DNA from: Elusimicrobiota bacterium | Lineage (GTDB): Bacteria > Elusimicrobiota > Elusimicrobia > UBA1565 | Direction of reading: 5' to 3' | Length of the DNA: 64,000 bases | Assembly: GCA_043819795.1 (NCBI GenBank) | Contig: JBDREN010000083.1 | Location: forward strand, 5,298 to 69,297 | Shown: positions 12,226 through 62,689 of the stretch, one piece after another | Numbering within the stretch: the stretch's first letter is position 1 | Layout: each line of letters begins with the position of its first letter | Position numbers and translations under genes: made by a program | The notes under the pieces: generated by a model | Database searches by the model: none | What the model was told of the DNA's origin: nothing | The model's input: the letters and a program-made list of their open reading frames with translations, nothing else

Positions 12226-12348
12226 GGTCGCCTCCCATGGAGATGGACGCGGCCATCCCCTGCGCGATGCTCGGTCATGGTCGCCTCCCACGGCAGTCGA
12301 CGCGACCATTTCCTGCGCTATGCTCGGTCATAACACTGCCTCCAGGTA
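12222..12348 (-). repeat. two tandem 57-nt copies of SD/start-codon-bearing intergenic repeat (mini-ORFs MTEHSAGNGRVDCRGRRP* and MTEHRAGDGRVHLHGRRP*), with own GGAGG SD, ATGA-coupled to each other and to the giant HK start
   Basis: Reverse complement matches repeat at 50606-50719 and 59231-59397; internal 8-bp inverted repeat ATGGTCGC/GCGACCAT; GGGAGG 6 nt before terminal ATG. Confidence 0.7.
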
Positions 12349-12547
12349 GATACGTCCGCCCCCCACGATGGGGCGATGCCCTATAGCACGAACTCTCTCT
12401 TCAACGTTAGTGTATAGCCGCAACCGGAAAAATCAAGCACTCTCAGCCATTACTTGGCCGAGCCTCGGCGGGTTCCCAGATCCGACTCCTAGCCTAGGGA
12501 AAGGATAACGGGGGGTAATTACAGATTCTTTAACGAAAATCGGGGCC

Positions 12548-12774
12548 TAACAGTCCGTGGCAAAAGTCTTCCGGGGCCTGCGATCGCCTGGATGCGGCCT
12601 GCGCCCGCGTTGCTCCTCGGTCACACCGGGCCCCGGCAGGGGCCCAGTGCCGCACGACCTCAGGAAATGCTTCGGAGCGCTGTCATCCCGTAGAGGGATG
12701 CTACCTCGTCGCGCCTTGGCTCGGCTCGCCCCGGACGATTTCGCCATCCGAAATACTTTTGCCACGGACTGTTA
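12548..12774. mobile_element. MITE-like element: 20-bp perfect terminal inverted repeats TAACAGTCCGTGGCAAAAGT flanking ~187 bp, in intergenic region between two HK genes
   Basis: Left IR 12548-12567, right IR 12755-12774 (exact reverse complement); right IR overlaps stop codon of PAS-HK gene; symmetric spurious ORFs MAKVFR on both strands. Confidence 0.45.
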
Positions 12775-15167: not shown

Positions 15168-18100
15168 ATGCGGCGGACCAATGGGCCCAGGTGGGTTCTA
15201 CTCGCGGCCTGCGCGTTGAGCCTCCAGGGCGCCGCCCGCGCCGGGACCGGTCCCCGTCCCTCTCCGAAGAGACTCCAGGAAGAGAAGCTGCCCGGCGCCA
15301 TCGTCGCGAGGCTCCCTGTTCCCGCCGCCTTCGCGTCTCCGGGGGCCCCGGCTTCGACGCTCTCCTCTCCGGCGGTCCTGCTCGCGCGGGAGATCGATGA
15401 GCTGTTCGCCGGCCTGAGCAGTGAGACCAACGACGGCACGCGGGCTCTCCGCCAGCCGGCTCCGGAAAAAGCCCCGCCCCGGGGAACCGGCTCCGGACGG
15501 CTTTCGTCGCGATCGTCTCCCGCGGCGGGAACGCGCGAGCCCGCCGAGGTTTTCGCCGCCCTGGACCGACGGCTCTCCGACATCCGCGCCCGGATCATCG
15601 ATACGATCGACGATCCCGAGGAGGTCGCGATCCTCCTGGCCCGCGTCGACCGGATCCGTGGCGTCCTGGCCAAGCTCCGGAGGGCCGGGGAAACGGGCCA
15701 AGCCCGTTCCCTGTCCGGGGCGATGGCCGGACTGGCGCGGGCCCTCGGGCGGGGGACCGATGACGAGAACCTCTCCAGGTTCGAGACCCTGGTCGACCGC
15801 CTGATGCAAGCGCGGTCGCTGCCCCCCGACCGGCTCGGAACGATCTTCGACAACACGCCCGAGTTCCCGGACAGCGATGTTCTCGCCCCCGTCCCGGCGG
15901 AGGGCTTCAAGGCCCGGGCCCCGCGAGCAAGGGCGAGCGGAGCGGGCGTTTCGCAAGCGGCCCTGTTGGACATCGACCGCTACCCACGGCCCCTGACCGG
16001 GATCCGTGTCGACGGCGGCGTCGTTCCGAAGCCGAGAGGGCCGGGAACCTCGGCCAAGGCCGAGCCGGAGTCCGAGGTCGGCCGCCCACAGCGACGAGCG
16101 GTCACCGCTTCGCAGGGGCTTGAGCGCTCGGCTGTCGCGGCGCTCTCGCCCTTCGCGGGACTGAGCCCGAAAGGCCGCCAGGACCTGTTCCGAAAGGACC
16201 GGGCCGCTCTCAGGCGGGAGCTGCTCGCCGTCGGACTCCGGGCGCTCGAGGAGGGCGACGCGGAGCTCGAGCCGTATCGGGAGGATCTGGACGCCGCGGA
16301 CGGAAGGCTCTCCGGGATGCGTAAAGCGCTGCTGGCCCGGCTCGGGTTCGATGCGCCCCCGCACAACGACCAGGAGCGCAGCGGGCGGTTCGCGACTCTC
16401 ACGAAAGAAGCCCCCCATCTGTCTCTCTATTTCGCGCGGCGCGGGATTTACCAGATGCGCATGCGGCAGGCCCACGGCGAGCATGCCGTGCCGCCGGAGA
16501 CGCGCTTCGCACCCTGGGAACTCGGCATCGAGGACGGCAGCGAGAAAGCCGTCGTCTACGCTACGGCCAAGGACGGCGACCGCACGTTCTACGGGCTGCG
16601 CCGGGAGTTCCAGGACGGCTCCTCGCGCTTCGCGGCGACCGACGGAGCGGAGGGGCTGGTCGTCGTGGTGTCCCCCTCCGATAGCCGCGAGATCCGCACG
16701 CGTATCCGTTTCGACGACCAGGGCCGGCCGGATCGCACCCGGACCTCGATCATCGACACGGGGACCGGCAAGAGGATCCGGGAGGAGATCGCCGACATCG
16801 CGCGGGCGCTCACGCGCTTCGTCGATTACGATCAAGCCGGCGACGCGGTGAGGGTCCTGACCCTGGACAGCGGCACCGGCGAGCAGGTGGTGGAGGACCG
16901 CCGGCAGGGCCGCCGCGTCGCGACCGACAAAGACGGAAAGGTCACGATCACGCCGATCCGAGGCGGAGCCCAAGCCTGGCAGCAGCAGGGCCGGCTCGAT
17001 GAGAGCGGCCGCTTCATCCTCGACCGCCTGGTGCGCGAAGACGGCAGCGTCGTCGAGCGCGTCAGCCCGCACGTCCTGAAGATATCGCGAGACGGCAAGG
17101 CGCAGGGCTATGAGATCGTCGTCGACTCCATCTTCCATGGCGCCCGGGGGCCTGAGCGCGAAGCGGAGTCCTCCAGGATCGCCCGCGAGATCATCGCGGC
17201 GCTCGGCTACCAGGACAAAGACGACCGGCGCTCGCGCCCCCTTAGCAACTGGCTCTCCGACACCTGGACGAAGGACGAGCGGACGCGCGGCGTCGCGATG
17301 ACGGTCGATCCGCGCGGAAGGTTCCAGGTCGTCTACAGCTACAAAGACGGGACCAAGCGCATCGAGCGCGCCAAGTACGGCCTTTCGACCTCGTACGGCG
17401 ACGGGAAGCGGGAGCTCGCGCTCGTGACGCTGAGGCCGGTCCATACCGACCGCCAGGGCCGGGCGCGGCTGGACCCCCGGCGCTACCGCGAGTACCTGGC
17501 CGGCGGCGGCTACAACCAGTGGCATTCCACTTTCGAGTTCAAGAAGGCCGGCTGGTTCTCGAACGCGAAGACGATCGAGCACGTCTCCCTCATCCGCTAC
17601 GGCCGGGACGGAAGCCTTCCACGCCTGGGTCCCGGGAGCGGGGGCGAGCGGGACGGAGACTCCGGCAGCGGCCGCTGGACGGAACGCGGCCGGGAGAAGA
17701 AGGACGAATTCGTCAATGAGGTCGGCGGGACATCGACCTTCGGCATCGTGGGGACCGCGATCCATGAGGCGCCGGTGGTCGGGGACGTCCTGCAGGCCGG
17801 CGGAGCGGTCGGAAAGACGCTCTGGACGGGCATCATGGCGGCTCCGCCCACCTTCATCTATGCGGTCACCAAGGACACGGATTACGGCCTCGCCATGTCG
17901 GGAAGCTACGCGAAGAACCCCCTGGTGAACCGTCTGGTGGGAGACCAGGGACACCTCGACCGCATGGACGGCAAGATGTGGGAGGTCGTCCTTATCGAGG
18001 CCCGCGAAAACCGCCGAAAAGACCTCGATCAGATGGGCTACACCGAGGGGAATACGGACCCGGAGGAGCATCAGCGTTTGCTCTCCCAATGGCGCGGAGA

Positions 18101-22543: not shown

Positions 22544-23572
22544 ATGAGCCCGGATTCGCCGAAGAAAATCCTCGTGATCGTCCTGGACAATCTGGGCGAC
22601 GTCGTCATGGGAAGCTCGCTGTTCGGACCTTTGCGGACGGCGTTCCCGCGAGCCGCCATCGGGATCTGGGTCAAGAAATACGCGGCCGGGGTATTCGACC
22701 TTCAGGGCTCCTCGATACGGGTGCACGCCGCCGACCTTTTCTGGGACAAGTCCCCGGGCCGCGGGAAAGGAGGCTGGAGACCGTTCCTGAGGACCCTGGG
22801 AGAGATCCGGGCGGAAGGCTACGATCTGGCTTTCGTTCTGAACGCCGAATGGAGGCGCTCGCTGGCCTGTCGGTGGGCGGGGATCCGCAACCGGGTGGGC
22901 CACGGGAAGAGGAAAGCCGGGATATTCCTCTCCCGCGCCGTCCCCGCGACGGGCGGGCGCAAGCACGTGGTCGAGGAGCACGCCGAGCTCTTCGCCGCTT
23001 GGACCGGCGCGCGCCTTCCGCTCTCCCGCTTCAAGCCGCAGATCGGCTTGTCCGACGGGCAGAGAAGGCGCGGAGAGGAGTGGGAATCGGGCCTGCGGTG
23101 GTCGGACAAGACCATCGTGGTGCTCCACGCCTTAACGGGCGATCCCGGGAAGGATTGGCCTCTGCGCAAGTGGACCCGGCTCGTCCGGCTCCTGTCCCGA
23201 CGGTCGGATGATTTCCGCTTCGTCGTCCTCAGCTCCCCGAAAGAAGCGAGCGTCCTTAACGGCGTCTTCGAGGCGTTTCCCAAGAGCGCCCTGCGGGTCT
23301 CGGTGGGTTCCGTGTCCGAGATCAAGCCGATCGTCTCCCGGGGCGACATATTCATCGGCGGGGACTCGGGCCCGGGCCATCTGGCCGCCGCGCTGGGGGT
23401 CCCGGTCGTCTCCCTCTTCGGTCCGACCGATCCGGACCGCTACAGGCCGATCGGGGACGCCCCCATCAAGGTCATCCGCCGCGATCCTTTGAGCGAGCTC
23501 TCCGTCGACGAGGTCATTGAGACCGTACTGGCGAGCAAGGCCTCGAATTTCCTAAGCTTCGCTACTCCGTGA
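22544..23572 (+). CDS. glycosyltransferase family 9 (LPS heptosyltransferase-like)
   Basis: KILVIVLDNLGDVVM N-terminal GT9 motif; GGDSGPGHLAAALGVPVVSLFGPTDP C-terminal motif. Confidence 0.8.
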   Translation: MSPDSPKKILVIVLDNLGDVVMGSSLFGPLRTAFPRAAIGIWVKKYAAGVFDLQGSSIRVHAADLFWDKSPGRGKGGWRPFLRTLGEIRAEGYDLAFVLNAEWRRSLACRWAGIRNRVGHGKRKAGIFLSRAVPATGGRKHVVEEHAELFAAWTGARLPLSRFKPQIGLSDGQRRRGEEWESGLRWSDKTIVVLHALTGDPGKDWPLRKWTRLVRLLSRRSDDFRFVVLSSPKEASVLNGVFEAFPKSALRVSVGSVSEIKPIVSRGDIFIGGDSGPGHLAAALGVPVVSLFGPTDPDRYRPIGDAPIKVIRRDPLSELSVDEVIETVLASKASNFLSFATP

Positions 23573-23597
23573 AGCCGGAGGCCAAGCGAGACATCCC

Positions 23598-24293
23598 ATG
23601 AACACACCCGCCGCCAAGCGCGAACTTCGCGATTTCAGGTCCCCCCGAGTGATCCGAGCCCAGAGCAACGTGGTCCGCCTTTGGCACGCTCGTGAAGGGC
23701 GGATCCGCACCTGGCAGGACGCCCGCCGGAGGATCCCGACGGCAAGGGGCCGGCTGCGCGAACTGGCGTCCTCGATCGCCAGGATCAACAGCTACCAGTG
23801 GCACGAGGAGGACAAGGCTCGGGCCACCGGCGTCCGCGATGGCGTGATCGCCCGGATCAAGCGGAACATCGACGCGTCCAACCAGCGCCGGGTGGACGAG
23901 ATCGAGAGGCTGGATTCGTGCCTGGAGACGTCTCTGAAGGAGCTGGGACTCCTTGGTGATCCGCGACTACCCTTGAGCTCCGAGACGCCGGGCAGCATCG
24001 CGGACAGGATATCGATCCTTATCCTCAAGATCTATCACATGAGCGAGCAGCGTCGCAGGAAGGACGCCACTGCCGCCCAGAGGCGGAGGTTTTCCGGCAA
24101 GGTCCGGATATTGAAGGAACAGCTGGCCGATCTCTCATCCTGTCTGGACGCCCTGATGGAGGACATCCTCGGGAAGAGTCGGCGGTTCAAGACCTATTTC
24201 CAGCTCAAGATGTACAACGACCCGGAGACCAACCCTTACATGAGAACCGCCCGGCGAGGTCAGGGCTCGCGCAAGCCGACCGCCCATCGCTGA
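23598..24293 (+). CDS. hypothetical protein conserved next to LPS-core glycosyltransferases (possibly DUF4254-like)
   Basis: ORF with ATG; family assignment from memory only. Confidence 0.55.
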   Translation: MNTPAAKRELRDFRSPRVIRAQSNVVRLWHAREGRIRTWQDARRRIPTARGRLRELASSIARINSYQWHEEDKARATGVRDGVIARIKRNIDASNQRRVDEIERLDSCLETSLKELGLLGDPRLPLSSETPGSIADRISILILKIYHMSEQRRRKDATAAQRRRFSGKVRILKEQLADLSSCLDALMEDILGKSRRFKTYFQLKMYNDPETNPYMRTARRGQGSRKPTAHR

Positions 24294-48356: not shown

Positions 48357-49495
48357 GGATCCTGCACATCATCGACGAACCCTACGATAGCGGGATCGTG
48401 CAGTACGCGCTCAAGGCCGCCGAGGGCCTGATGCGGCGGGGCCACGCCTGCCGCGTCTGGGGCCTGAAGGGATGCTATCCGCTTCTGGAAGCGCGGCGTC
48501 GCGGCATAGGGGCCGACGGCTACTCGCACCCCTGGCTGAACCTGGCGGTCCTGCGCCGGTCGCTCCGCATCCAGGGGCTGGACCTCGTCGTCGCGCATAC
48601 GGGCTCCGCCCACACGCTGGCCGTCGCGGCGGCCGCCTGGCACCGGGGCCCCGGGACGCGCCGGAGCTCCGCCGCCTCGTCCTCGGCGAGCGGACCGGTC
48701 CCGGCGGACGGAGGCGGAGGCTACCTCCCCGTCGTACGCACGCGCGGTGACGCCCGGCCGCAGAGCAGGCGTCCCGGTGGGCGCCTGCTCTGGAGCCGGA
48801 CATCCGGGTTCGTGGCGGCCAACCGCCGCATCCTCGATGAGCACTCCCGGCTCTACGGACGCCCGGACCTGCACGCGGCCGTCGTGTACGAGGGGCGCGA
48901 GGATCCCGGCCCGCCACGCCCGCCGGCGCGGGGCGCGCCGACCGTCGGCATCGTGGCCCGGCTCGACCCCGTCAAGGGCCACCGCTGCTTTCTCGAGGCG
49001 GCAGCCCGCGTCCTCAGGGAGTGCCCCGACGCGCGGTTCCTCGTCGTCGGGCGCCAGGAGAACGTGCGCGCGGCGGACCTGCTCGGCCACGCCCGGCGCC
49101 TCGGGCTCGCGGACCGCCTGGACCTGACCGGACACGTCCCCGACGCGCTCGAATTCATGCGGCGCTGCCACGTGGGGGTCGTGGCCTCGACCGGCTCCGA
49201 AGCCGTCTCTCGCTCCGCCGTCGAGTGGATGGCGGTGGGGAGGCCGCTGGTCGCGACGAAGGTCGGCTGCCTTCCCGAATACGTGATCGAAGGCGAGACC
49301 GGCTTTCTCGTGCCGCCGGGGGACGCGCCGGCGCTGGCGCGCGCGACCGGCCGTCTGGTGCGCGACGCGTTCCTGCGCGAGCGCATGGGACAGGCCGGGC
49401 GCCGGCGCTACGAGTCCCGCTTCACGCTGGAGCGATTCCTGGATGAGACGGAGCGCCTCTATGGCGAAACGATTCACGCTGTTCCATCTCGATAG
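48353..49495 (+). CDS. glycosyltransferase family 4 (with low-complexity insertion in N-domain)
   Basis: ATGA overlap with upstream stop; C-terminal E..G.PLVATKVGCLPEYV GT4 motif. Confidence 0.75.
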   Translation: MRILHIIDEPYDSGIVQYALKAAEGLMRRGHACRVWGLKGCYPLLEARRRGIGADGYSHPWLNLAVLRRSLRIQGLDLVVAHTGSAHTLAVAAAAWHRGPGTRRSSAASSSASGPVPADGGGGYLPVVRTRGDARPQSRRPGGRLLWSRTSGFVAANRRILDEHSRLYGRPDLHAAVVYEGREDPGPPRPPARGAPTVGIVARLDPVKGHRCFLEAAARVLRECPDARFLVVGRQENVRAADLLGHARRLGLADRLDLTGHVPDALEFMRRCHVGVVASTGSEAVSRSAVEWMAVGRPLVATKVGCLPEYVIEGETGFLVPPGDAPALARATGRLVRDAFLRERMGQAGRRRYESRFTLERFLDETERLYGETIHAVPSR

Positions 49496-50609
49496 CGAAC
49501 GCGGCTTCCGCGGCGGCGAGCGCCAGCTCCTGTATCTGGCCGCTCATCTGCGCGCCCGGGGTCACGAGAACGTCGTGGTCTGCCGGGGACGCGAGGCCCT
49601 CGAGGCCGAGGCCCGCCGCCAGCGCTTCCGAACGATGCGCCTACCCTTCCTCGGCGAATGGGACCCGGTCTCCGCGTGGCGGCTCCGGAGGGCGTCCCGG
49701 TCGGCGCGGCACGCCCCCGTGCTCCACGCCCACACCGCTCACGCCGCCGCCCTCGCCTACCTGGCGTCGCGCTTCGGAGGTCCCCCGTGGGTGGCGCACC
49801 GCCGCGTCGACTTCCACCTCAACGGCTCGCTCAGCCGCCGTCTCAAATACGACACCGCGCCCCGCGTGATCGCCGTCTCCGAGAGCATCCGCCGCATCCT
49901 GGTCGCCGACGGAATGGAGGGCTCGCGCATCACGGTCGTCCCGGACTGCATTCCTCTCACTGACGATGAGGCGCGCCTCGCGGGTCTCGACGCCGGTCCG
50001 ATGCGCCGGGCCACCCGCTCGGAAACCGCCGCCATACGCCGTCCCCTCGCCGAGAACCTGGGCCTTCCCGAGACCGGGCCCTGGATCGGCAACCTGGCGG
50101 CCCACGTTCCGCACAAGGACCAGGCGACCCTGATACGAAGCCTGCCTTCTGTGCTGAAGGCGCTGCCGAAAGCGCGCCTGCTGCTCGTGGGCGACGGCCC
50201 TCTCCGGACGGAGCTCGAGGCGCTGGCTCGGTCGCTGGGCGTCGAATCGGCCGTCCGCTTCGCCGGCCACCAGAGCGATCCGGCGCCGTGGCTGAGCTGC
50301 CTCGACGTCTACGTCCAGTCGTCCTGGGGAGAGGGGATGGGATCGGTGCTTCTCGAGGCGATGGCCTGCGGCGTCCCGATCGTCGCGACGACGGCGGGAG
50401 GGATACCCGAGGTGATCGAGCACGGGCGCAGCGGGCTCCTCGTGCCCCCGCGCGATCCGGAGCGAATGGCGGGTGCGATCGTCGACTCCTTGCTCGATCC
50501 CGAAAGCGCCCGGCGCAGGGCGGACGCGGCGGCCGAGGATCTGAAGTCTTTCGGCCTCAGCCGCGTCGGTGACCGCATGATCGCGCTCTATCGCGAGGTG
50601 ACGGAGTGA
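49461..50609 (+). CDS. glycosyltransferase family 4
   Basis: GEGMGSVLLEAMACGVPIVATTAGGIPEVI. Confidence 0.75.
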   Translation: MAKRFTLFHLDSERGFRGGERQLLYLAAHLRARGHENVVVCRGREALEAEARRQRFRTMRLPFLGEWDPVSAWRLRRASRSARHAPVLHAHTAHAAALAYLASRFGGPPWVAHRRVDFHLNGSLSRRLKYDTAPRVIAVSESIRRILVADGMEGSRITVVPDCIPLTDDEARLAGLDAGPMRRATRSETAAIRRPLAENLGLPETGPWIGNLAAHVPHKDQATLIRSLPSVLKALPKARLLLVGDGPLRTELEALARSLGVESAVRFAGHQSDPAPWLSCLDVYVQSSWGEGMGSVLLEAMACGVPIVATTAGGIPEVIEHGRSGLLVPPRDPERMAGAIVDSLLDPESARRRADAAAEDLKSFGLSRVGDRMIALYREVTE

Positions 50610-50719
50610 CCGAGCATAGCGCGGTTTCGGCTGCGTGCCTCAGCCATTCCCTCGCGTTTGGCCGCAAACGCTTCGGTCACAGGAATGGTCGCGTCGATCG
50701 CCGCGGGAGGCGACCATGA
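50606..50719 (+). repeat. 114-nt long form of SD/start-bearing intergenic repeat: mini-ORF GTG..TGA (37 codons) whose GTG overlaps upstream GT4 stop (GTGA) and whose TGA overlaps downstream GT2 ATG (ATGA)
   Basis: Near-identical to 59231-59344; internal hairpins GCGTTTG-gccg-CAAACGC and ATGGTCGC..GCGACCAT; GGGAGG 6 nt before ATG 50716. Confidence 0.7.
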
Positions 50720-51519
50720 AGCCGAAGCTGAGCGTCATCGTCATCGCCCGCGACGAGGAGCGAGACCTGCCGGCCTGCCTCGAGAGCGTGCGGGGCCTCG
50801 ACGCCGAGATCATCGTCCTGGACAGCGGCTCGACCGACCGCACGCGCGAGATCGCCCGCCGGTTCACGCCCCATGTCTTCCAGCAGCCCTTCCGGGACTT
50901 CGGCTCCCAGAAACAGTCGGCCTTGGAACGCGCCTCGGGCGAATGGGTCCTCTCTATCGACGCCGACGAACGCCTGAGCGGCGAGCTGCGCCTGGAGATC
51001 GCCCGCCTGATCGAGTCCCCCCCGGGCGGCGTCTCCGGCTACGACATCCCTTTCGAGGTCCACTTCATGGGCCGCCGCCTCCGGTTCGGCGGCCTGGGCC
51101 GGGAGCGGCACCTGCGCCTGTTCCGGCGCGGGGCCGGGGTCTTCACCGGAAACCACCTTCACGAGGGCGTCTCCGTCACGGGGGCGACGGCGCGCGCGGG
51201 CGCGCCGATCCGGCACATCCCCTACCGGGACCTCGACGACTATCTGGGGAAGCTGCGCGTCTACACGACCCGGGCCGCCCGCAAGAGATTCGACCAGGGG
51301 CGGAGGTTCCACCCGCTCCACCACCTGCTGCCGCTTTGGGAGTTCTTCCTGCGCGTCGTGGTGAGGCTCGGGATGCTGGACGGGACCCCCGGCCTGCTTT
51401 GGGCGGGGCTCTCTTCGTTCCATACGTGGATCAAATACGTGAAGCTGCGCGAGATCGCGGAGGAGCCCGGAAGCCTTCCACGCCTGGGTCCCGCGAGCAA
51501 GGGCGAGAGGAAGCGGTGA
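50716..51519 (+). CDS. glycosyltransferase family 2; C-terminal 15 aa encoded by a copy of the 45-nt repeat (51468-51514)
   Basis: SVIVIARDEERDLPACLESV...DADE; C-terminus PGSLPRLGPASKGERKR. Confidence 0.8.
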   Translation: MKPKLSVIVIARDEERDLPACLESVRGLDAEIIVLDSGSTDRTREIARRFTPHVFQQPFRDFGSQKQSALERASGEWVLSIDADERLSGELRLEIARLIESPPGGVSGYDIPFEVHFMGRRLRFGGLGRERHLRLFRRGAGVFTGNHLHEGVSVTGATARAGAPIRHIPYRDLDDYLGKLRVYTTRAARKRFDQGRRFHPLHHLLPLWEFFLRVVVRLGMLDGTPGLLWAGLSSFHTWIKYVKLREIAEEPGSLPRLGPASKGERKR

Positions 51520-52334
51520 CCGGCCTTTATCTGGTGGCCGGCGGCATCGGAGCCATCTCGGCGGCGGCGGTCTCGGCCCGCTGGAACTGGTGGCGGCCGC
51601 GCGCGCACGGCCTTCCGGTGCTGATGTACCATAGGATCGGAGACCCCCCCGCGGGCAGCCGGCTGAAGAAGCTCTGGGTCCGCCTCGCGGATTTCCGCTG
51701 GCAGATGGAGCACCTGCTTCGCGACGGCTACACGCCGCTGCTCTTCTCCGAGCTGGAGGCCCTGGAGGCCGGGAAGAGCCCGAAGCCGCCCCGGCCGGTC
51801 ATCATCACCTTCGACGACGGCACGGCCGACAACTACGAGCTCGCCTTTCCGGCGCTGCGGGAGCTCGACGTCAAGGCGAACATCTTCCTGGTCTGCGACG
51901 CGGTCGGCGGACACAACTCCTGGGAGGACCCGGCCGTGGGCCCTTGGCAGCGGATGCTGAGCTGGGGACGGGTCCTGGAGATGCAGGAGTCGGGACTCGT
52001 CGAGTTCGGCTCCCATACCATGAGCCACCGCGACCTGGCGCGGCTGCCTGTGGAGGAAGCCCGCTGGGAGGTCCGTGAATCGAAAAAGCGGCTGGAGGAC
52101 CGGCTCGGCCGGCCGGTGACGGCGTTCGCTTATCCCTACGGCTCCGGCGCCCGCGTCCCGGAGCTGCGCGCCGCGGTCCGCGAGGCCGGCTATCGCTACG
52201 ACTACGGGATCCGGCAGGGGATATCCCCATGGCCCGACGGCCGGGATGAGGCCGCCAAACGCCTGCTGATCCGCGGCGACGATCTCCGGATCGACTTCCG
52301 CCTCAACCTGACCCGCGGGAGGGCACGCCTCTGA
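51516..52334 (+). CDS. polysaccharide deacetylase (NodB-homology) family protein with N-terminal TM; GTG start overlapping GT2 stop (GTGA)
   Basis: VIITFDDGTADNYELAFPAL, SHTMSHRDL, FAYPYG motifs. Confidence 0.75.
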   Translation: MTGLYLVAGGIGAISAAAVSARWNWWRPRAHGLPVLMYHRIGDPPAGSRLKKLWVRLADFRWQMEHLLRDGYTPLLFSELEALEAGKSPKPPRPVIITFDDGTADNYELAFPALRELDVKANIFLVCDAVGGHNSWEDPAVGPWQRMLSWGRVLEMQESGLVEFGSHTMSHRDLARLPVEEARWEVRESKKRLEDRLGRPVTAFAYPYGSGARVPELRAAVREAGYRYDYGIRQGISPWPDGRDEAAKRLLIRGDDLRIDFRLNLTRGRARL

Positions 52335-54558: not shown

Positions 54559-55169
54559 GACCCAGATCACCCCGAAAGCCGTCCCCCCGTACCGGGGCCG
54601 CGCCCCGCTCGCCCGTGGTATTCCTGGACCGCGACGGCACAATCATCCACGACCGGCCGGGGTTCTACCTCAAGCGGCCGGAGCAGTTGCGCCTCTACGC
54701 CAGCACCCCGCCGGCGCTGCGACTGCTTCGCGACGCCGGTTACCGCCTCGTCGTGCTCTCCAATCAGAGCGGCATCGGCCGCGGCTTCCTCGACCACGCG
54801 ACGCTGGCGCGCATCCATCGCCGGTTGCTGAGCGCGTTGCGCCGCCGCGGAGCGGACCTCGACGCGATCTACTTCTGCCCGCACCATCCCGCCGACGGGT
54901 GCCGCTGCCGCAAGCCCTCGCCGGTGCTGGCCCGACGGGCCCTCCGGGAGAACCACATCACGCTCAGGGGTTCCGTCGTCGTCGGCGACAAGAAGGCGGA
55001 CATCGACCTGGCGCGCGCGATCGGCATCCCGTCGGTGCTGCTCAAGACCGGCCACGGCCGGGAGCAGCGCGCCATGTTCGGGCGAAGACTGAGGCCGACC
55101 CACGTGGCGCGCGACATCCTAGGCGCCGCTCGATGGATATTGAAGTCCGTGCCGAGGCCCCCGCGGTGA
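54555..55169 (+). CDS. gmhB: D-glycero-D-manno-heptose 1,7-bisphosphate phosphatase
   Basis: FLDRDGTI, HAD motifs, zinc site CRCRKP; ATGA overlap. Confidence 0.85.
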   Translation: MRPRSPRKPSPRTGAAPRSPVVFLDRDGTIIHDRPGFYLKRPEQLRLYASTPPALRLLRDAGYRLVVLSNQSGIGRGFLDHATLARIHRRLLSALRRRGADLDAIYFCPHHPADGCRCRKPSPVLARRALRENHITLRGSVVVGDKKADIDLARAIGIPSVLLKTGHGREQRAMFGRRLRPTHVARDILGAARWILKSVPRPPR

Positions 55170-55197
55170 CGCCCCGCATTCGAACGGTCCGCCCGCG

Positions 55198-56037
55198 ATG
55201 AGGCTTGGCTGGCTGGGACTGGCTCTGCTGATCCCCTCGGCGGCCGGGGCCGAGCCCTCATTGCCCCACGGCGAGCCGGTGCGGATCACGAGCGACACGG
55301 TCCCGTCCCCATACGCCCTCATCGCCGGCACCCTGCCCTACTCGTCGGAGTACGCCCAGGTCCCCTGGTTCCCCGAGTCCCTCGAGTTCGAGGTCAAATG
55401 GGGCGTGTTCTCCATGGGGTTCGCGACCATGGAGTCCAAGAGGATCGTGGATTTCGGGGGCCAGCCCGCCTTCGAGATCGTGTCCACGGCGAGATCGAAC
55501 CGGTTCGCGGACAGCTTCTACCAGGTCCGCGACATCAACGAATCCTGGATCCGAGCACGCGACCTGAGCTCTCTGGGATACTCGAAGAAGCTGCGCGAAG
55601 GGAAGTTCTTCCGCGACGAGTGGGTCCTCTTCGACTACGGCCGCAAGAGCTTCCTGTCCAAGCGCGTCAACCGCGACGGCAGCTTCAGCCATAGCGCGGG
55701 GGACATACCCGGCACGGTCCAGGACATCCTTTCGAGCATGTACTATATCCGCCCCCGCCGCCTCGAAGTGGGCGATGAGATCACGCTGGACGTCAACACG
55801 AAGGAGAACTGGCCGCTGGTGATCAAGGTCCTGCGCAAGGCCACGGTCCAGGTCCCGGCCGGACGCTTCCGGACTGTCGTCGTCGAGCCGTTCCTCCGGA
55901 AGGAGGGCATCTTCATCCAGAAGGGCAAGAGGATGCGCGTCTGGGTCACCGACGACGAGCGCCACATCCCGGTCCTCCTGAAGGTGGAGATCGTCTTCGG
56001 CCACATCTCCGCTTATCTCACCAAGATCGACCGCTGA
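55198..56037 (+). CDS. DUF3108-like secreted protein (frequent in LPS clusters)
   Basis: Signal peptide; family call from memory of architecture. Confidence 0.55.
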   Translation: MRLGWLGLALLIPSAAGAEPSLPHGEPVRITSDTVPSPYALIAGTLPYSSEYAQVPWFPESLEFEVKWGVFSMGFATMESKRIVDFGGQPAFEIVSTARSNRFADSFYQVRDINESWIRARDLSSLGYSKKLREGKFFRDEWVLFDYGRKSFLSKRVNRDGSFSHSAGDIPGTVQDILSSMYYIRPRRLEVGDEITLDVNTKENWPLVIKVLRKATVQVPAGRFRTVVVEPFLRKEGIFIQKGKRMRVWVTDDERHIPVLLKVEIVFGHISAYLTKIDR

Positions 56038-58094
56038 TGCCGCCCGCGGCCCTCCGGCGCCTGAAAGAGCCGGCGATCGTGCTCCTGATCCTGGCGGCGG
56101 CGATCGCCGTCGTCTACGCCGTCGTCCTGGGAGCGCCCGTCGTATACGACGACGACGTCCTGGTCCGGGGGAACCCGGCGTTCCTCCTCCCGCCGGCGGA
56201 GTTCTGGAGCCGCCTTTGGTCGCTCGACTATTTCGCGTTCACGCAGGAGCGCTCTTACCAGCCGCTCGTGACGCTGCTGCACTACCCGCTCTTCCGGCTG
56301 CCCTGGGCGTACCGGAGCCTGGGACTGGCTCTGCACGCGGCCAACGGCCTGCTCGTCTACGCGATCGGCCGCCGGCTCGCGTTCGGCTCCGGCCAAGCGC
56401 TGGCCGCGGCGCTCCTGTTCGCGCTGTTCCCGGCGTCCACTGAGGCCCTCAACATCTCGTCGTTCAAGGGCCACCCGCTCGCGCTCGCGTTCTCCCTGAG
56501 CACGCTGCTCGCCTGGATGCGAACCGGCGAACGGCCTTCGGCCCCGGCCCCGCTCGCCCCCGCTCGCGGGGCCCAGAAATTGAAGGCTTCCGCCCCGCTT
56601 CTCCTCGCCCATCTTTCGCTCGTCTTCGCCCTGCTGTCCAAAGAGACCGGGCTCATCGCCCCGGCGCTCGTCGTCGTCCACGCGCTGTGCTATCTGCGCG
56701 GGCGGCCGCGGGCGGCTCTCTGGCGCGCTTCGGGCCTGCTGGCGCTCAGCGCCCTCTATCTTTGGTTCCGCTTCGGGCTGCTCCCGCCGCCCCCTTCCCT
56801 GGCGCCCGGGGAACGTGCCGTCGCGACGCTCTGGCTCCCCTGGGAGTCCTTCGGCTGGTACTTAAAGACCCTGATCGCGCCGCTGCCCCTCTGCCTGGAG
56901 CATTCCCTGGACCACGGGCCCTCGGCGACGGCCCGTGCCGGGGCCGCCTTCCGCATGCTCTTGCCCGCGCTCTACGCCTTGCTGCTGTGGCGCTGGCGGC
57001 GCCGGTCCGACAGGCTCTTTTTGCTGCTCTGGATACTCGCCGCCACGCTCCCCTTCCTGCACCTGATCCCGTTCTCCAACTACAGCCCGGTCGCCGACCG
57101 CTACCTCTACGCGGCCTCGGCCGGTCTCTCGCTTCTGGCGGTCCGCGGTCTCTGGGACACGCGCATGAGGGCCGCCCTCCTGGCCGTCGCGCTCGCCTGG
57201 GGCGCGCTTTCCATCGCCCGCAACGCCCTGTATAGGGACACCCGCGCCCTCTACGAGCAGACCGCCGCGTGCGCTCCCGGCAACCCGCGCGCGCACGCCC
57301 TGCTGGCGGGCTGGCACTACAGCGCGGGGCGCGATTATCCCGCGGCGCTCGAGGGCTTCCGCCGGGCCTTCGCCTTGGCCCCGGAGCTCTTGTCCCACTT
57401 CCGCGACCCGGGACTCGTGCATGCGCAGCGCCCCTCGTATATCCTCGGGCTGATCCATCACCGGATGGGCGACGAAGACCGGGCCGCCGAGCTGCTCGAG
57501 CGGGCGCTGGGAGCCGAAAGCCGGCCCCTCGCCCGCGCCGCCCTCCATGAGAAGCTGGGCGACGTCCACGGGGCGCGGGGGGACCTCTCCCGGGCGCTGG
57601 CCGAATACCGGGCCGCGCGCGCCATCCTGCCGCACTGGGGATTGCCGTACCTCAAAGAGGGCCTCGCGCTCCAGACGAGCCAGCCCGCGCGTGCTCTGGC
57701 TCTCATGGAGCGCTCCCGCGCCCTGACCCCGGACCACGACGAGCCCCACCGCCGCCTGCAGGCCAGGATCGACCGGCTGCTCGGGGACGCCTATCTGGCG
57801 CAAGGGATGCCCGAGAGGGCCGTTCGCGCCTGGGAGTCGGCCGAAGCCAAGGTCCCGGGCCGACTGGACCTCCTGCTCCACCTAGCCGACACCTACCGGA
57901 GCATCGGGGATCGATCGGCTTCCGCTTCGGCCTACCGCCGCGCCCTGGCCGCGGCGGACCGGACCCTCGCCCGGCTTCGCCGGCTTCCGGAGGCCGGCGC
58001 CGGCACGGCTGAGTCGGAGAGGCTCATCTCCTCCGTGCGCCGGCAGGCGCGGAAGGCGGAGGCGGCGCTCCGAGAGCTCGAATCGGCCCCCTGA
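56037..58094 (+). CDS. TMTC/PMT_2-like GT-C membrane glycosyltransferase with C-terminal TPR repeats; carries in-frame inverted copy of 45-nt repeat (56546-56596)
   Basis: N-terminal VVYDDDVLVRGNP motif, ~10 TM helices, TPR-like C-terminal half. Confidence 0.65.
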   Translation: MPPAALRRLKEPAIVLLILAAAIAVVYAVVLGAPVVYDDDVLVRGNPAFLLPPAEFWSRLWSLDYFAFTQERSYQPLVTLLHYPLFRLPWAYRSLGLALHAANGLLVYAIGRRLAFGSGQALAAALLFALFPASTEALNISSFKGHPLALAFSLSTLLAWMRTGERPSAPAPLAPARGAQKLKASAPLLLAHLSLVFALLSKETGLIAPALVVVHALCYLRGRPRAALWRASGLLALSALYLWFRFGLLPPPPSLAPGERAVATLWLPWESFGWYLKTLIAPLPLCLEHSLDHGPSATARAGAAFRMLLPALYALLLWRWRRRSDRLFLLLWILAATLPFLHLIPFSNYSPVADRYLYAASAGLSLLAVRGLWDTRMRAALLAVALAWGALSIARNALYRDTRALYEQTAACAPGNPRAHALLAGWHYSAGRDYPAALEGFRRAFALAPELLSHFRDPGLVHAQRPSYILGLIHHRMGDEDRAAELLERALGAESRPLARAALHEKLGDVHGARGDLSRALAEYRAARAILPHWGLPYLKEGLALQTSQPARALALMERSRALTPDHDEPHRRLQARIDRLLGDAYLAQGMPERAVRAWESAEAKVPGRLDLLLHLADTYRSIGDRSASASAYRRALAAADRTLARLRRLPEAGAGTAESERLISSVRRQARKAEAALRELESAP
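56546..56596 (-). repeat. 45-nt GC palindromic repeat copy (inverted orientation), in-frame within TMTC-like gene ([17 protein letters not shown])
   Basis: ccgctcgcccccgctcgcggggcccagaaattgaaggcttccg. Confidence 0.6.
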
Positions 58095-58127: not shown

Positions 58128-59234
58128 ACGATGAAACCCTCCCGCCCGTCGCTCAAACGCCTGCTTTCCATCCTGGCGCGATTCCGCCGGAGACGAGTGC
58201 TCGTTCTCGGCGATCTGATGCTCGACCATTTCGTTCGGGGACGCGTGAACCGCCTCTCGCCCGAGGCGCCGGTGCCGGTCGTCGCCGTCGACGAGGAGAC
58301 CCATATGCCGGGAGGGGCCGGCAACGTCTGCAGCAACCTTAGCGCCCTCGGCGCGGCCGTCTCGGTGTTCGGCGTGCTCGGCGACGACGCGGCCGGCGGC
58401 CAGCTGATCCGGGACCTCCAGGCCAGAGGCGTGGACACCGGAGGCGTCGTGCTCGACGCCTTGCGCGTGACGACGCAGAAGTGCCGCATCGTCGCGGAGC
58501 ACCAGCAGGTGGTCCGGTTCGACCGGGAGACCCCTCGCGTGCTCTCCGCGCAGACGCAGTCGAAGCTCCTCCGGAAGCTGAGCGAGGCGATGAGCGGGGC
58601 CGACGCGGTGGTGGTTTCCGATTACGGAAAAGGCGTCGTCACGGCGAACGCCGTGCGTAAGGCGCTGCGGGCGGCGCACCGCGCCCGGCTGCCGGTCGTC
58701 GTCGACCCGAAGGTGGAGCACTTCCGCCGCTATAAGGGAGTCGACTGCATCACGCCGAACCTCCAGGAGGCGTGGGGCGGCATGGGACTGCACCCCTCCC
58801 AGGACGAGGCCGCCATCCACCGGCTCGGCCGCCGCATCCTGGCGGCCCTCCGCGTGCGCTCCGTGCTGATTACCCGGGCGGAGAAGGGCATGACCCTCTT
58901 CGCGGCGAACGATCCGGGGCCGATCTTGCCGTCGCGCACGCGCGGGGCGGAAGCCCTCGACACCCGGGCCCCGCGAGCAAGGGCGCGCGGGGCGGGCAAG
59001 ATCGTCGTCGACCACATCCCGACCCAAGCCAAGGAGGTCTACGACGTGACCGGAGCCGGGGACACCGTCGTCAGCGTGCTGTCTCTGGCGCTCGCCTCAG
59101 GCGCCCGCCTCTATGAGGCGGCCGTTCTGGCGAACCTGGCGGCGAGCATCGTCGTGGGCAAGCTAGGGACCGCCACCATCTCCGCCGACGAGATCAAGCG
59201 GGCGGTCCGCGAATCCGGCCGGAGGCGCTCGTGA
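58128..59234 (+). CDS. hldA: D-glycero-beta-D-manno-heptose-7-phosphate kinase (RfaE/HldE domain I type, stand-alone) with in-frame 45-nt repeat insertion (58945-58995)
   Basis: RVLVLGDLMLD, PGGAGNV, DPK, VTGAGDTV ribokinase-family motifs. Confidence 0.85.
   Translation, partial: TMKPSRPSLKRLLSILARFRRRRVLVLGDLMLDHFVRGRVNRLSPEAPVPVVAVDEETHMPGGAGNVCSNLSALGAAVSVFGVLGDDAAGGQLIRDLQARGVDTGGVVLDALRVTTQKCRIVAEHQQVVRFDRETPRVLSAQTQSKLLRKLSEAMSGADAVVVSDYGKGVVTANAVRKALRAAHRARLPVVVDPKVEHFRRYKGVDCITPNLQEAWGGMGLHPSQDEAAIHRLGRRILAALRVRSVLITRAEKGMTLFAANDPGPILPSRTRGAEALDTRAPRARARGAGKIVVDHIPTQAKEVYDVTGAGDTVVSVLSLALASGARLYEAAVLANLAASIVVGKLGTATISADEIKRAVRESGRRRS
58945..58995 (+). repeat. 45-nt GC palindromic repeat copy inserted in-frame into heptose kinase (EALDTRAPRARARGAG)
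   Basis: ggcggaagccctcgacacccgggccccgcgagcaagggcgcgcggggcggg. Confidence 0.6.
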
Positions 59235-59397
59235 CCGAGCATAGCGTGGTTTCGGCTGCGTGCCTCAACCATTCCCTCGCGTTTGGCCGCAAACGCTTCG
59301 GTCACAGCAATGGTCGCGTCGATCGCCGTGGGAGGCGACCATGACCGAGCATAGCGCAGGAAATGGTCGCGTCGATCGCCGTGGGAGGCGACCATGA
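59231..59397 (+). repeat. long (114 nt) + short (57 nt) tandem units of SD/start-bearing repeat between hldA and kdsB; GTGA overlap with hldA stop, ATGA between units, ATGA into kdsB
   Basis: Direct comparison with 50606-50719 (4 substitutions) and 12222-12335. Confidence 0.7.
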
Positions 59398-60164
59398 TCC
59401 TAAGGCGCAGCCGCTCGAGAACGCTCGTCGTGATCCCGGCGCGTCACGCCTCGACGCGCCTGCCCGGCAAGGTGCTCAAGCCCCTCGGCGGCATCCCGGT
59501 GGTCGAGTGGGTGCGGCGGTCCGCGATCCGGGCCGACCGCGGACCCGTCGTCGTCGCGACCGACCACCCGGACGTCCTGCACGCCGTCGAGCGTTTCGGC
59601 GGCTCGGCGGTACTCACCTCGGAGCGCTGCTCCTCCGGGACCGATCGCGTCGCCGAGGCGCTGCGGATCGTCGAGGCCGCCCGCGGGCTCCGCTTCCGCG
59701 CCGTCATCAATCTGCAGGGCGACGAGCCGTTCATCCGTCCGGCCACGATCCGCAGGGTCGCGGCCCTGATCGAGAAAGGGGCGGACATCTCGACCGCGGT
59801 CGTCCCGCTCTCCTCGCGGCGCGCGGCCGCCGATCCGAACGTCGTCAAAGCGGCCGTCGCGGCCGACGGACGCTGCCTCTATTTCTCCCGCTCGGCCATC
59901 CCCTTCGCCAACGGCGTGGACCGCCGCCTTTCCTTCCGCCATATCGGCATATACGGCTTCACTCGCGAGGCGCTACGGCGCTTCGTGCGCCTGCGCCCTT
60001 CGCCTCTCGAGCGCGCCGAGCGCCTCGAGCAGCTGCGCGCCCTCGAGGACGGCATGACGATCGTAGCCGCGCGCGTCGCCGATCCCGGCATCGCGATCGA
60101 CACCCCGGCCGATCTTGCGCGCGCGCGCCGGCGATGCCGAGGCAGGACCAAGACACATGGCTAA
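59394..60164 (+). CDS. kdsB: 3-deoxy-manno-octulosonate cytidylyltransferase
   Basis: [17 protein letters not shown]..., LQGDEP. Confidence 0.9.
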
Positions 60165-61785
60165 GTTCATCTTCGTCACCGGCGGCGTCGTCAGCTCCCT
60201 AGGGAAGGGCATCAGCGCGGCCTCGCTGGCCAAGCTCCTGCAGGCCCGGGGCATCAAGGTCACCTGCCTAAAATGCGACCCCTACATAAACGTGGACCCC
60301 GGGACCATGAACCCCTATCAGCACGGGGAGGTCTTCGTGACCGAGGACGGCGCCGAGACCGACCTCGACCTGGGCCATTACGAGCGCTTCCTCAACACCG
60401 ACCTGCACCACACGAACAATTTCACGGCCGGGCAGGTCTACGAGACCGTGATCGCCAAGGAGCGCGCCGGGGAGTTCCTGGGGAACACCGTCCAGGTCAT
60501 CCCGCACATCACCGACGAGATCAAGCATCGCTACCGCCTCGTGGCCAAAGGCCGGGACGTCGTCATCATCGAGGTCGGCGGGACGGTGGGCGACATCGAG
60601 AGCCTCCCCTTCCTGGAGGCGGCGCGGCAGCTCGGCCTCGAAGCCGGGAAAGACAACGTCCTCTACATCCATGTGACGCTTCTGCCGTTCTTGCGCGCCT
60701 CCGAGGAGGTCAAGACGAAGCCGACGCAGCATTCGGTCGGCAAGCTGCGCGAGATCGGCATCAACCCCGACATCATCATCTGCCGGGGCGAAAAGCCCCT
60801 CGCCCCGGAGCTGAAGGCCAAGATCGCGATGTTCTGCAGCGTCCACAAGGATGCCGTCATCGAGGCCCCCGACGTCTCGACGATCTACGAGGTCCCTCTC
60901 GTCTTCCGCCGGCAGGGGCTCGACGAGCAGGTGCTGATGCTGCTGCGGCAGCGCGCCCACACGAAGGATCTCGAGGATTGGAAGAAGCTGGTCGACCGGA
61001 TCAAGAAGCCCGGGGAGGAGGTGCGCATCGCGCTCGCGGGCAAGTACACCGAGATCAAAGACGCCTACAAGTCGGTCCATGAGGCCATCGTTCACGGAGG
61101 CATCGCCAACGACGCCCGGGTGCGCATCCACTACGTCGACACCACCTCCCGGGATCTCGAGGAGACCCTGAAGGATCTCGACGGGGTCCTCGTTCCCGGA
61201 GGCTTCGGCGACCGCGGCATCGACGGCAAGCTGCGCGCGATCCAAATCGCGCGGGAGCGGGAGATCCCGTTCCTCGGGCTCTGTCTCGGGATGCAGCTGG
61301 CCGTCGTCGAGTTCGCCCGGAACGTCCTCAAGCTGGCCGGCGCCAACTCGACCGAATTCGATCCCAAGACGCCCTACCCGGTCATCGACCTGCTCCCCGA
61401 GCAAAAGAACGTCAAAGAGAAGGGCGGGACGATGCGCCTGGGAGCCTACGAGTGCAGCATCAGGAAAGGAAGCTTGGCCCACAAAGCCTACCGGACCGGC
61501 ATGGTCTCGGAGCGCCACCGCCACCGCTTCGAGTTCAATAACAAGTTCCGGAAGCTCGTCGAGGACTCCGGTCTGCTCGTCACCGGGATCTTCGCCTCCA
61601 AGAACCTCGCCGAGATCGTCGAGATGCGCGGGCACCCCTGGTTCCTGGCGTCGCAGTTCCATCCGGAGTTCAAGTCGCGGCCCGAGGAACCCCACCCCCT
61701 ATTCGCCGACTTCGTCGCCGCGGCGCTCGCTCGCTCGCGCGCTCGGCGCCGCCCCGCGCGGAAGGCCCCCCATGCGAAAAGGTAG
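60157..61785 (+). CDS. pyrG: CTP synthase
   Basis: [19 protein letters not shown]..., GATase domain GLCLGMQ, HPEF. Confidence 0.95.
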
Positions 61786-62689
61786 CCCCGCTCGCCCCCG
61801 CTCGCGGGGCCCGGGTGTTGAAGGCTTCCGCCCTGCCCGCGGCGTGCGCATCGGAGCCTTCTCCGTCGGCAACGAACTCCCGCTCTTCTTCATCGCCGGC
61901 GCCTGCGTGCTGGAGTCCAGCGAGCTCCTCTACCGGGTGGGGCGCGCCCTGAAGACCGCTTTCGCCCGCGCCGGAGTCCCCTGGGTGCTGAAATGCAGCT
62001 TCGACAAGGCGAACCGGTCCTCCCTGCGCGGGTTCCGGGGCCCGGGCATGTCGCGGGCGCTCGAGGTATTCGCCCGGGCCAAGAGGGACCTCGGCGTGCC
62101 GTTTCTGACCGATATCCACCAGCCCTCGCAGGCCGAACAGGTGGCGAAGGTCGCCGACATCATCCAGGTCCCGGCGTTCCTCTGCCGGCAGACGGACCTC
62201 CTGGTGGCCGCCGGCAAGACGGGGAAGGCGGTCAACATCAAGAAAGGGCAGTTCCTCTCCCCCTGGGACATGACCAACGCCGTCGAGAAGGTCGCCTCCA
62301 CGGGGAACCGGAAGATCCTGCTCACAGAGCGCGGCACCTCGTTCGGTTACGCCAATCTCGTCGTGGATATGCGCTCGCTCGAGATCATGGGGCGGACAGG
62401 CTGTCCCGTGGTATTCGACGCGACGCACTCCTGCCAGCTTCCCGGCTCGATGGGGACCGCGACCGGCGGGCAACGCCGCTACGCGTGGCTTCTCGCCCGG
62501 GCCGCGGCGGCCGCGGGGGTCGCGGGCATATTCCTGGAGGCCCATCCGGACCCCGCCCGAGCGAAGTCCGACGGGCCGAACTCGCTTTGTCTAAGCGACG
62601 TGCCGGCGTTCGTGCGCAGCGTCACGCCCATAGACCGCCTCGTAAAGACCGGGGCGGCCCGACGCGCGAGGAGGGGCGTCCACCCATGA
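61772..62689 (+). CDS. kdsA: 2-dehydro-3-deoxyphosphooctonate aldolase (Kdo8P synthase); first 24 codons are an inverted 45-nt repeat copy, GTG 61844 may be true start
   Basis: [14 protein letters not shown]...[11 protein letters not shown]...[10 protein letters not shown]. Confidence 0.85.
61786..61836 (-). repeat. 45-nt GC palindromic repeat copy (inverted) at pyrG/kdsA junction
   Basis: ccccgctcgcccccgctcgcggggcccgggtgttgaaggcttccgcc. Confidence 0.6.

Follow-up and report, generated by a model that had tools for sequence, protein, structure and literature searches.

What is a 114-nucleotide (nt) repeat doing exactly between the stop codon of one gene and the start codon of the next? The question is raised by a 64,000-nt stretch of DNA from an Elusimicrobiota bacterium (assembly GCA_043819795.1, contig JBDREN010000083.1, positions 5,298 to 69,297 of the forward strand), hereafter the window, in which such an element separates a GT4 glycosyltransferase gene from a GT2 glycosyltransferase gene. 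The element belongs to a family of short repeats that sit at start codons, leave the downstream coding sequence intact, and provide it with a new Shine–Dalgarno (SD) sequence and start codon. We judge it likely that the element is a non-autonomous mobile repeat of the type of the interspersed repetitive units found in mycobacteria (MIRUs), with a translational relay that would make its insertion nearly harmless. A sequence-only reading of the window had taken the element for a mobile coupling cassette of a class that it did not recognize. The first part of that description was largely right, as the element is dispersed, evidently mobile, and carries a mini open reading frame (mini-ORF) that is geometrically coupled to the flanking genes; the second part was not, as mycobacterial MIRUs already do the same.

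The repeat unit and its copies in the window

What does one unit consist of? Counted with the NTGA tetranucleotide at both ends, the short unit is 57 nt long (ATGACCGAGCATAGCGCAGGAAATGGTCGCGTCGATCGCCGTGGGAGGCGACCATGA) and makes a net addition of 53 bp; this 53-bp unit, with the 5' terminus TGACCGAGC, runs CCGAGC...GGGAGGCGACCATGA. Adjoining units have ATGA in common, giving a period of 53 nt. The long form differs from it by 58 nt added after CATAGCG and by the removal of one A, a net gain of 57 nt that keeps the frame. Three sites in the window carry five units in total, namely two 114-nt composites and three short units.

The long unit between the GT4 and GT2 genes occupies positions 50606–50719 of the plus strand and reads GTGA-CCGAGCATAGCG...GGGAGGCGACC-ATGA, with the insert at 50622–50679. 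The GT4 gene (49443–50609, plus strand; Pfam GT4/GT1 domains) ends on a TGA that lies within the 5' junction GTGA (50606–50609), and the GTG of the same junction begins an open mini-ORF of 37 codons. A look-up of the exact GT4 protein sequence gave no match. The mini-ORF ends on the TGA at 50717–50719, within the 3' junction ATGA (50716–50719), where it overlaps the ATG (50716–50718) that is the present GT2 start. Five nt before this ATG stands the SD sequence GGGAGG (50705–50710), which is the same in all copies, an invariance that is partly built in, as GGGAGG is required by the pattern with which copies elsewhere were sought. Two hairpins are predicted on folding: GCGTTTG-gccg-CAAACGC (50654–50671), which lies within the insert specific to the long form, and a core hairpin, ATGGTCGC-17 nt-GCGACCAT (50685–50717, with arms at 50685–50692 and 50710–50717). 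With the start at 50716, the Pfam domain PF00535 of the GT2 protein begins at residue 6, and NCBI annotates an identical 267-aa product (P0241). The GTG at 50606 is the earlier start codon of GT2.

The second long unit (59231–59344, plus strand) differs from the first at four positions and begins at the GTGA that ends a pfkB-like gene. It stands in tandem with a short 57-nt unit (59341–59397, plus strand), whose ATG at 59394 is the start of kdsB; KdsB read from 59394 is 100% identical to P0001, and the start codon is the same. KdsB and GT2 both match proteins of an Elusimicrobiota metagenome-assembled genome at 100% identity. The remaining two units form an array on the minus strand. In the first of these (12275–12331), the 5' ATGA is preceded by a native GGAGG, and in the second (12222–12278), the ATG at 12225 opens a 2,532-codon ORF; the two units show nine differences over 57 positions. 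There is no stop/start junction at 12331, where the array sits on a free-standing start codon (GGAGG-7 nt-ATGA); it was at this 5' ATGA that the large ORF formerly started. The sequence-only reading had given the coordinates and sequence of the first long unit, its 37-codon frame, its provision of an SD sequence and ATG to GT2, and its two hairpins just as we find them, and it had correctly listed the 114-nt recurrence at 59231 and the 57-nt recurrence at 59341–59397; the array at 12 kb, however, is on the minus strand and ends at 12331, not at 12335.

Where did the extra 58 nt of the long form come from? A nested inverted copy of the unit was considered and set aside: an inverted stretch resembles unit positions 10–28, and the match is too weak (nhmmer E=8.5).

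The element sits at start codons

Are copies in other genomes placed in the same way? We searched for them with the pattern GGYCGCGTC-N9-GGGAGGCGACC, in which neither junction is specified, first in one genome per GTDB species and then in metagenome contigs. The scan of GTDB representatives returned 31 loci, of which 20 (21 copies) are genuine, the others being chance matches within actinobacterial and other genes. The genuine copies come from eight species-level metagenome-assembled genomes, seven labelled Elusimicrobia or Elusimicrobiota and one labelled plainly 'bacterium' (locus L014). Metagenome contigs yielded further copies (the loci L033–L036, L048, L050, and L054 come from groundwater of the Hainich wells), and de-duplication of the two sets together left 29 unique element sites. 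The carriers are thus high-GC Elusimicrobiota genomes, at least eight of them, plus metagenomes; the GC content of the window is 68%. Within the window, the 45-nt core of the element occurs twice, compared with no occurrence in 100 shuffles.

The 5' junction is NTGA at all 29 sites (ATGA or GTGA in 28, CTGA in L028), and the 3' junction is ATGA at 26, the others being GTGA (L025), GTGG (L048), and ATGC (L027). At every one of the 29, an ORF of 88 to 2,532 codons opens at the ATG or GTG of the element, whereas the proportion among all NTGA sites of this DNA is only 37%, and the element is everywhere co-oriented with the downstream gene. In roughly one half of the cases, the 5' TGA doubles as the stop of a long upstream ORF. 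The other half are free-standing start codons with intergenic DNA upstream, often with a native SD sequence, for example at 12331 in the window (GGAGG), in L020 (AAGGAG), and in L015. The earlier idea that copies always show the same stop/start overlap therefore fails at about half of the sites, the 12.3-kb array included; the refuting condition set with it, namely copies elsewhere that lie away from start junctions or out of frame, did not materialize, as the start-codon geometry is kept at 29 of 29. In other words, what the sites share is a start codon followed by A (NTGA), rather than a stop/start junction.

Are these start codons genuine? Nine of ten downstream proteins tested are recognizable products of housekeeping genes (HPr, MiaA, GT4, NuoD, a CtpA-like protease, PanC, GTP cyclohydrolase I (FolE), NuoE, and GT2), and KdsB, tested separately, is likewise recognized as the product of a housekeeping gene. 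Pfam domains begin within about six residues of the element ATG in HPr, MiaA, PanC, and GT2, and within 12 in KdsB; therefore, the element ATG is the working start codon.

Is there more to the target than NTGA? When 70 unoccupied NTGA junctions were set against the occupied sites, no difference in the flanks emerged (p=0.13). A by-eye likeness of the upstream flanks in L008b, L052, and L019 to the element end GGGAGGCGACC was rejected as a target motif on the same comparison. The L008b and L052 flanks are, on their sequence, better read as truncated older units, and in both L008 and L052 truncated remnants do stand immediately upstream of full units. Purifying selection against insertion elsewhere may contribute to the start-codon restriction, as may the demand of our search for an intact SD sequence.

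Empty sites, identical copies, and tandem arrays

Did the element insert, or was it lost from relatives? The pfkB|kdsB junction is empty in three orthologous loci, which have a 4-nt overlap in place of the element (ATGA in L058, GTGA in L060, and TTGA in L062). In the window, the same junction reads GTGA plus 163 nt, followed by the KdsB N-terminus MILR, to be compared with LILR in L062. The GT4|GT2 junction likewise lacks the element in three relatives: in L065 and L067 the two genes overlap by 4 nt (ATGA), and in L066 the overlap is 17 nt, the GT2 start being an ATGA within the last part of GT4. From the empty 4-nt overlaps at these two junctions, it follows that the element inserted at NTGA, duplicating TGA. 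Insertion leaves the downstream coding sequence exactly restored and supplies it with GGGAGG-5 nt-ATG.

Copies have also spread within and between genomes. Identical 57-mers are found at unrelated loci of one genome (L004 and L021; L010 and L019) and across species (L004 and L009). Two loci of the window have the 114-nt composite, which was therefore copied after its internal insert arose. Units in tandem are not identical, with 2–9 differences, and the divergence within the 12-kb array would fit successive insertion into a regenerated ATGA better than slippage. One further observation concerns a pair of loci, L009 (5895–5950) and L050 (minus strand, 1277–1221), in which the element and miaA are identical and the upstream DNA is wholly different from the 5' NTGA onward; either recombination between dispersed copies or chimeric metagenome assembly at the repeat could account for this divergence.

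A proposed translational relay

How could a gene tolerate an insertion at its start codon? We propose the following mechanism. The 53-bp unit, mobilized in trans by an enzyme, would integrate at an NTGA whose NTG is a start codon, either free-standing or overlapping an upstream TGA stop, and TGA would then flank the insert on both sides. The original initiation signal, be it the gene's own SD sequence or termination-reinitiation from upstream, would now start an 18-codon mini-ORF. A ribosome reading the mini-ORF would open the hairpin, in which the new start region would otherwise be paired, and would terminate at a UGA overlapping the new AUG, itself 5 nt after a consensus SD sequence; the unchanged downstream coding sequence would then be translated by re-initiation or initiation. 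As the unit ends in ATGA, it would re-form its own target, allowing successive insertions and tandem arrays, and composites carrying internal inserts would be copied as whole units. A stem that is melted by translation of a leader ORF just before AUGA is the classical arrangement for translational coupling.

What speaks for passage of ribosomes through the element? Relative to 57 nt, four length variants of 51 (L038), 111 (L034), 114 (window), and 330 nt (L025) represent changes of −6, +54, +57, and +273 nt. All four changes are multiples of three, and all four variants are open and end in a TGA overlapping the start codon. Three independent variants of 56 nt, located at different genes (L014, L015, and L027), are shifted in frame and each meet a stop (TAA, TGA, and TAA, respectively) 5 nt past the A of the start codon, where the chance of a stop within two codons in this DNA is approximately 3% per site. 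In L048 the TGA is lost (GTGG), and a stop follows at +10. The mini-peptide itself shows no conservation: the two long copies differ by four substitutions, and three of these are nonsynonymous. In-frame indels and compensating stops combined with an unconserved peptide mean that it is the path of the ribosome to the start codon that is preserved, and not a protein. We take the in-frame length variants and compensating stops to argue for selection on the relay geometry.

The L025 variant owes its length to a nested MITE (a miniature transposable element with inverted repeats) of 273 nt (3985–4257, minus strand) with inverted ends of approximately 32 nt (AGAGCGCCTAAAGAAACCTGGGAGGGCCTTGG...), and the composite is one open frame of 109 codons that ends on a TGA overlapping the downstream GTG. 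The window also contains two unique mini-ORFs on the plus strand, of 10 and 11 codons (23569–23601 and 55166–55201), which bridge neighboring long ORFs with GTGA on the 5' side and ATGA on the 3' side. They show the geometry of the element but not its repeat sequence, and they may have arisen by chance, be native ORFs for coupling, or represent units that have decayed completely.

Turning to RNA structure, predictions are dominated by the core hairpin (AUGGUCGC-17 nt-GCGACCAU), with minimum free energies in context of −29 to −34 kcal/mol. The z-scores are −2.5 and −3.9 where short units were folded (two sequences) and −1.2 for the long form in a 140-nt context. In the predicted hairpin, the SD sequence is mostly in the loop, and the 3' arm takes in the spacer together with the first two letters (AU) of the AUG.

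Alternatives to the proposed relay

Could the same mobile element manage without a relay, the downstream gene initiating independently at the SD sequence and ATG of the element and the mini-ORF being an unselected by-product? The lack of conservation of the mini-peptide would be natural in that case, GGGAGG and its 5-nt spacer come close to a consensus site for initiation, and L028 persists with a 5' CTGA, where there is no canonical start. We nevertheless regard this as improbable: the four larger indel variants are all in frame and open, even the one with a 273-nt nested MITE, and all three −1 variants meet a nearby compensating stop, which is unexpected if read-through is irrelevant.

A second alternative concerns the origin of the unit, which might be a miniature derivative of the IS200/IS605 type (PATE- or REP-like), inserted 3' of NTGA on one strand by a Y1 HUH transposase. 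Much about the element would suit such an origin, including the absence of convincing terminal inverted repeats (TIRs), insertion next to a fixed tetranucleotide that the 3' end ATGA mimics, a subterminal hairpin, strict strand polarity, and head-to-tail tandem arrays. IS200/IS605 elements, however, have a hairpin at each end and the basic unit has one, and no fetched locus contains tnpA or a longer element with the same ends (no genome-wide TnpA search was made). Moreover, this origin accounts for NTGA but not for the restriction to start codons, and occupied flanks could not be told from the 70 unoccupied ones. Taking these points together, we find a derivation from IS200/IS605 unlikely.

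Is the element selfish DNA at all? Genes are preceded by a hairpin that is conserved and by a short ORF resembling a leader, and the element is retained across species, which might instead suggest a regulatory cassette evolved by the host, such as a micropeptide, an attenuator or leader, or an mRNA-stabilizing or -processing hairpin. The targets, however, are functionally unrelated (HPr, miaA, panC, nuoD, nuoE, folE, kdsB, glycosyltransferases, and ctpA), orthologous loci differ in the presence or absence of the element, and the peptide varies freely and tolerates inserts of 18–91 codons. A U run of the terminator kind is absent, and no RNA family was matched: a scan of the window against Rfam 15 at the gathering threshold found one tRNA and left the element unmatched, and a scan of 59150–59470 at E<=1 matched no family. 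We consider a host cassette very unlikely. Coincidence, local tandem duplication (slippage of a variable-number tandem repeat), or assembly artefact is already refuted for the family as a whole and has next to no probability left, with L009 and L050 diverging exactly at the 5' junction, as a chimeric assembly would, but with the repeat present at approximately 29 different genes in independent assemblies from NCBI, ENA, and JGI, no matches in shuffled sequence, and copies 8.6 and 47 kb apart that slippage cannot place.

Several points weigh against the MIRU-type relay that we favor. We infer translation of the mini-ORF and its coupling from geometry, and the consensus SD sequence by itself might suffice for expression. 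The statistics on frame conservation are post hoc and based on approximately eight variants. The few variants in the 5' arm of the hairpin break a pair and none is compensating, the 3' arm being held constant by the search pattern. Both scans demanded an intact hairpin arm and GGGAGGCGACC and would thus miss copies with a decayed SD region; neutral copies away from start codons are an example of what such scans would overlook. Finally, with regard to mobility, a repeat search found no TIR in the element, no transposase was seen in any fetched locus, and no fetched locus has the 5' and 3' ends flanking a gene, as an autonomous element would; the widest separation of the two ends is the 330 nt of L025.

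Other repeats and open reading frames in the window

The window carries a second, unrelated family of GC-rich repeats, with at least 11 copies in both orientations and the core GGACGGAAGCCTTCAACGCCTGGGCCCCGCGAGCRRGGGCGAGCGGG. Copies on the plus strand are at 15893, 17604, 24352, 25470, 32844, 38772, 38829, 51463, and 58943, and inverted copies are at 56533–56600 and 61768–61853. The copy within the pfkB-like gene (~58917–59008) is a 28–30-residue insertion, GPILPSRTRGAEALDTRAPRARARGAGKIV, that is missing from three orthologues, and the copy at 51463–51528 gives the GT2 protein a different, longer C-terminus and its stop. By its sequence, this second family looks like an in-frame invader of coding sequences, akin to the Rickettsia palindromic elements (RPEs).

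Close to the 12.3-kb array, 32-nt inverted repeats at 12543–12574 and 12748–12779 are 88% complementary and 173 nt apart; the pair (12543–12779) looks like an intergenic MITE of approximately 237 nt. The 2,532-codon ORF downstream of the array (4627–12225, minus strand) has many internal degenerate repeats (D3, D5, D6, and D8–D13), including a 174-nt tandem at 7096–7443, and its first 300 residues have no Pfam match; it probably encodes a giant coiled-coil protein. A tandem repeat with a 63-nt period (D7; 18689–18925, plus strand), seen as three overlapping 111-nt copies that are 83–87% identical, lies in a 1,746-codon ORF (15168–20408).

Implications

MIRUs are used worldwide for tuberculosis strain typing, and we know of no account of how they move or why they occupy start codons. 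The open-access literature that we searched treats MIRUs as a mycobacterial feature, and our search of it brought up no relevant MIRU-like element outside mycobacteria. On the basis of its sequence and geometry, the element described here would be a new family of the known MIRU kind in a distant uncultivated phylum, the Elusimicrobiota, and the comparative evidence that it offers for a relay is unusually clear. It is possible, and we offer the idea only tentatively, that start-codon-homing relay repeats are a general, convergent class of selfish DNA, with a machinery that recognizes translation-initiation sites and not merely NTGA. If that is true, a second family, with no detectable homology to MIRUs and present in many Elusimicrobiota genomes, makes the enzyme that mobilizes MIRU-type repeats findable by presence/absence profiling. 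The same design in a distant phylum suggests a general solution for a selfish element that is neutral to expression, and its recipe would be an NTGA at a start codon, an open mini-ORF, and an SD sequence and ATG handed over to the gene. The natural length variants amount to a comparative experiment, in which in-frame inserts and compensating stops indicate that read-through to the start codon matters.

There are also practical consequences. For example, the units cause N-terminal over-extension of the downstream gene in annotation: the longest-ORF calls at 50635–51519 and 4627–12309 (minus strand) extend back into the element, adding 27–28 spurious codons, and Mycobacterium tuberculosis RegX3 entries (P0121–P0124) are 245–277 aa long as compared with the true 227 aa, extended back through MIRUs. 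Additionally, the unit could serve as a ready-made, natural bicistronic-design cassette.

Comparison with known systems

How close is the element to MIRUs? According to the summaries in PMC12548453 and PMC3184786, MIRUs have been known since 1997 (Supply et al. 1997 Mol Microbiol 26:991). Their described features are a size of 40–100 bp, direct repeats of a tetranucleotide, sites that may be empty or filled, and ORFs that overlap the adjacent genes (PMC3184786). MIRUs and the element are alike in being repeats of 40–100 bp that are both dispersed and in tandem and are oriented with the flanking genes. Both are inserted at start codons or between cistrons, both have short direct repeats (TGA/ATGA for the element) and empty versus filled sites, and in both the start and stop of a mini-ORF overlap the neighbors' stop and start, with an SD sequence just before the 3' junction. 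Each has in-frame length classes, 77 and 53 bp for MIRUs and 51, 57, 111, 114, and 330 nt for the element, and the 53-bp period of the element is that of the short MIRU class.

For a direct comparison we used one of the approximately 40 MIRU loci of M. tuberculosis, the senX3-regX3 array (L064, 1355–1593; 77 bp x 3.1). Each of its units starts with ATGACC on the senX3 stop, contains GAGCGTAGCG (the element has GAGCATAGCG), and finishes in GGGGGAGAGTGGCGCTGATGA, after which comes the next ATG or regX3. At this locus, global alignment of the element with the 77-mer is not significant (p of 0.05–0.13 against shuffles), and the element's hidden Markov model gives no nhmmer match at E<=1. The two also differ in their hosts, Elusimicrobiota as opposed to Actinomycetota (Mycobacterium); in their internal junctions, TGATGA with a 1-nt UGA/AUG overlap in senX3-regX3 as opposed to the 4-nt ATGA overlap of the element; and in the 8-bp hairpin with the SD sequence in its loop, which is strong in the element and not predicted for the MIRU (z=−0.07). 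In other words, the element appears to work like a MIRU while standing outside the MIRU sequence family, as far as one MIRU locus can represent it. It has the features of a MIRU-type repeat, namely a short dispersed and tandem unit, insertion at start codons, and an overlapping internal ORF, with exceptions to the overlap rule in the 56-nt variants (stop at +5), L048 (stop at +10), and L028 (CTG at the 5' junction).

Other repeat classes are more distant. REP/BIME, REPIN (mobilized by RAYT), and PATE elements are, like the element, short, GC-rich, and hairpin-forming, with no DDE-type inverted ends and with a hairpin-associated tetranucleotide. REPs are extragenic and mostly follow genes; they are found in either orientation or as doublets that are inverted, and they have a GT[AG]G head. 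The element, unlike REPs, is found at start codons only and in co-orientation with the gene only, carries an SD sequence, an ATG, and an ORF, and has no GTAG head; no RAYT (Y1) gene is present in the fetched loci, whole genomes not having been searched for one. Compared with PATEs of the IS200/IS605 group, the tetranucleotide target and the absence of TIRs agree, and there is one hairpin only (TnpA was not searched for genome-wide). A classical DDE-type MITE was also considered and rejected: there is a TGA direct repeat, but ATGACCGA matches the reverse complement of ATGGTCGC at only 5 of 8 positions, and there is no TIR.

Two further systems share the logic of the element, if not its makeup. 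RPEs are likewise selfish repeats that are compatible with translation of the host gene; they enter coding sequences in frame and join the protein, whereas the element remains outside the protein and would relay ribosomes to it. In bicistronic-design cassettes and natural coupling upstream ORFs, a short leader ORF that overlaps the main start supplies ribosomes and frees translation from its dependence on the structure of the local mRNA (PMC12548453). Those arrangements are single-locus or synthetic, whereas the element is a dispersed, mobile family.

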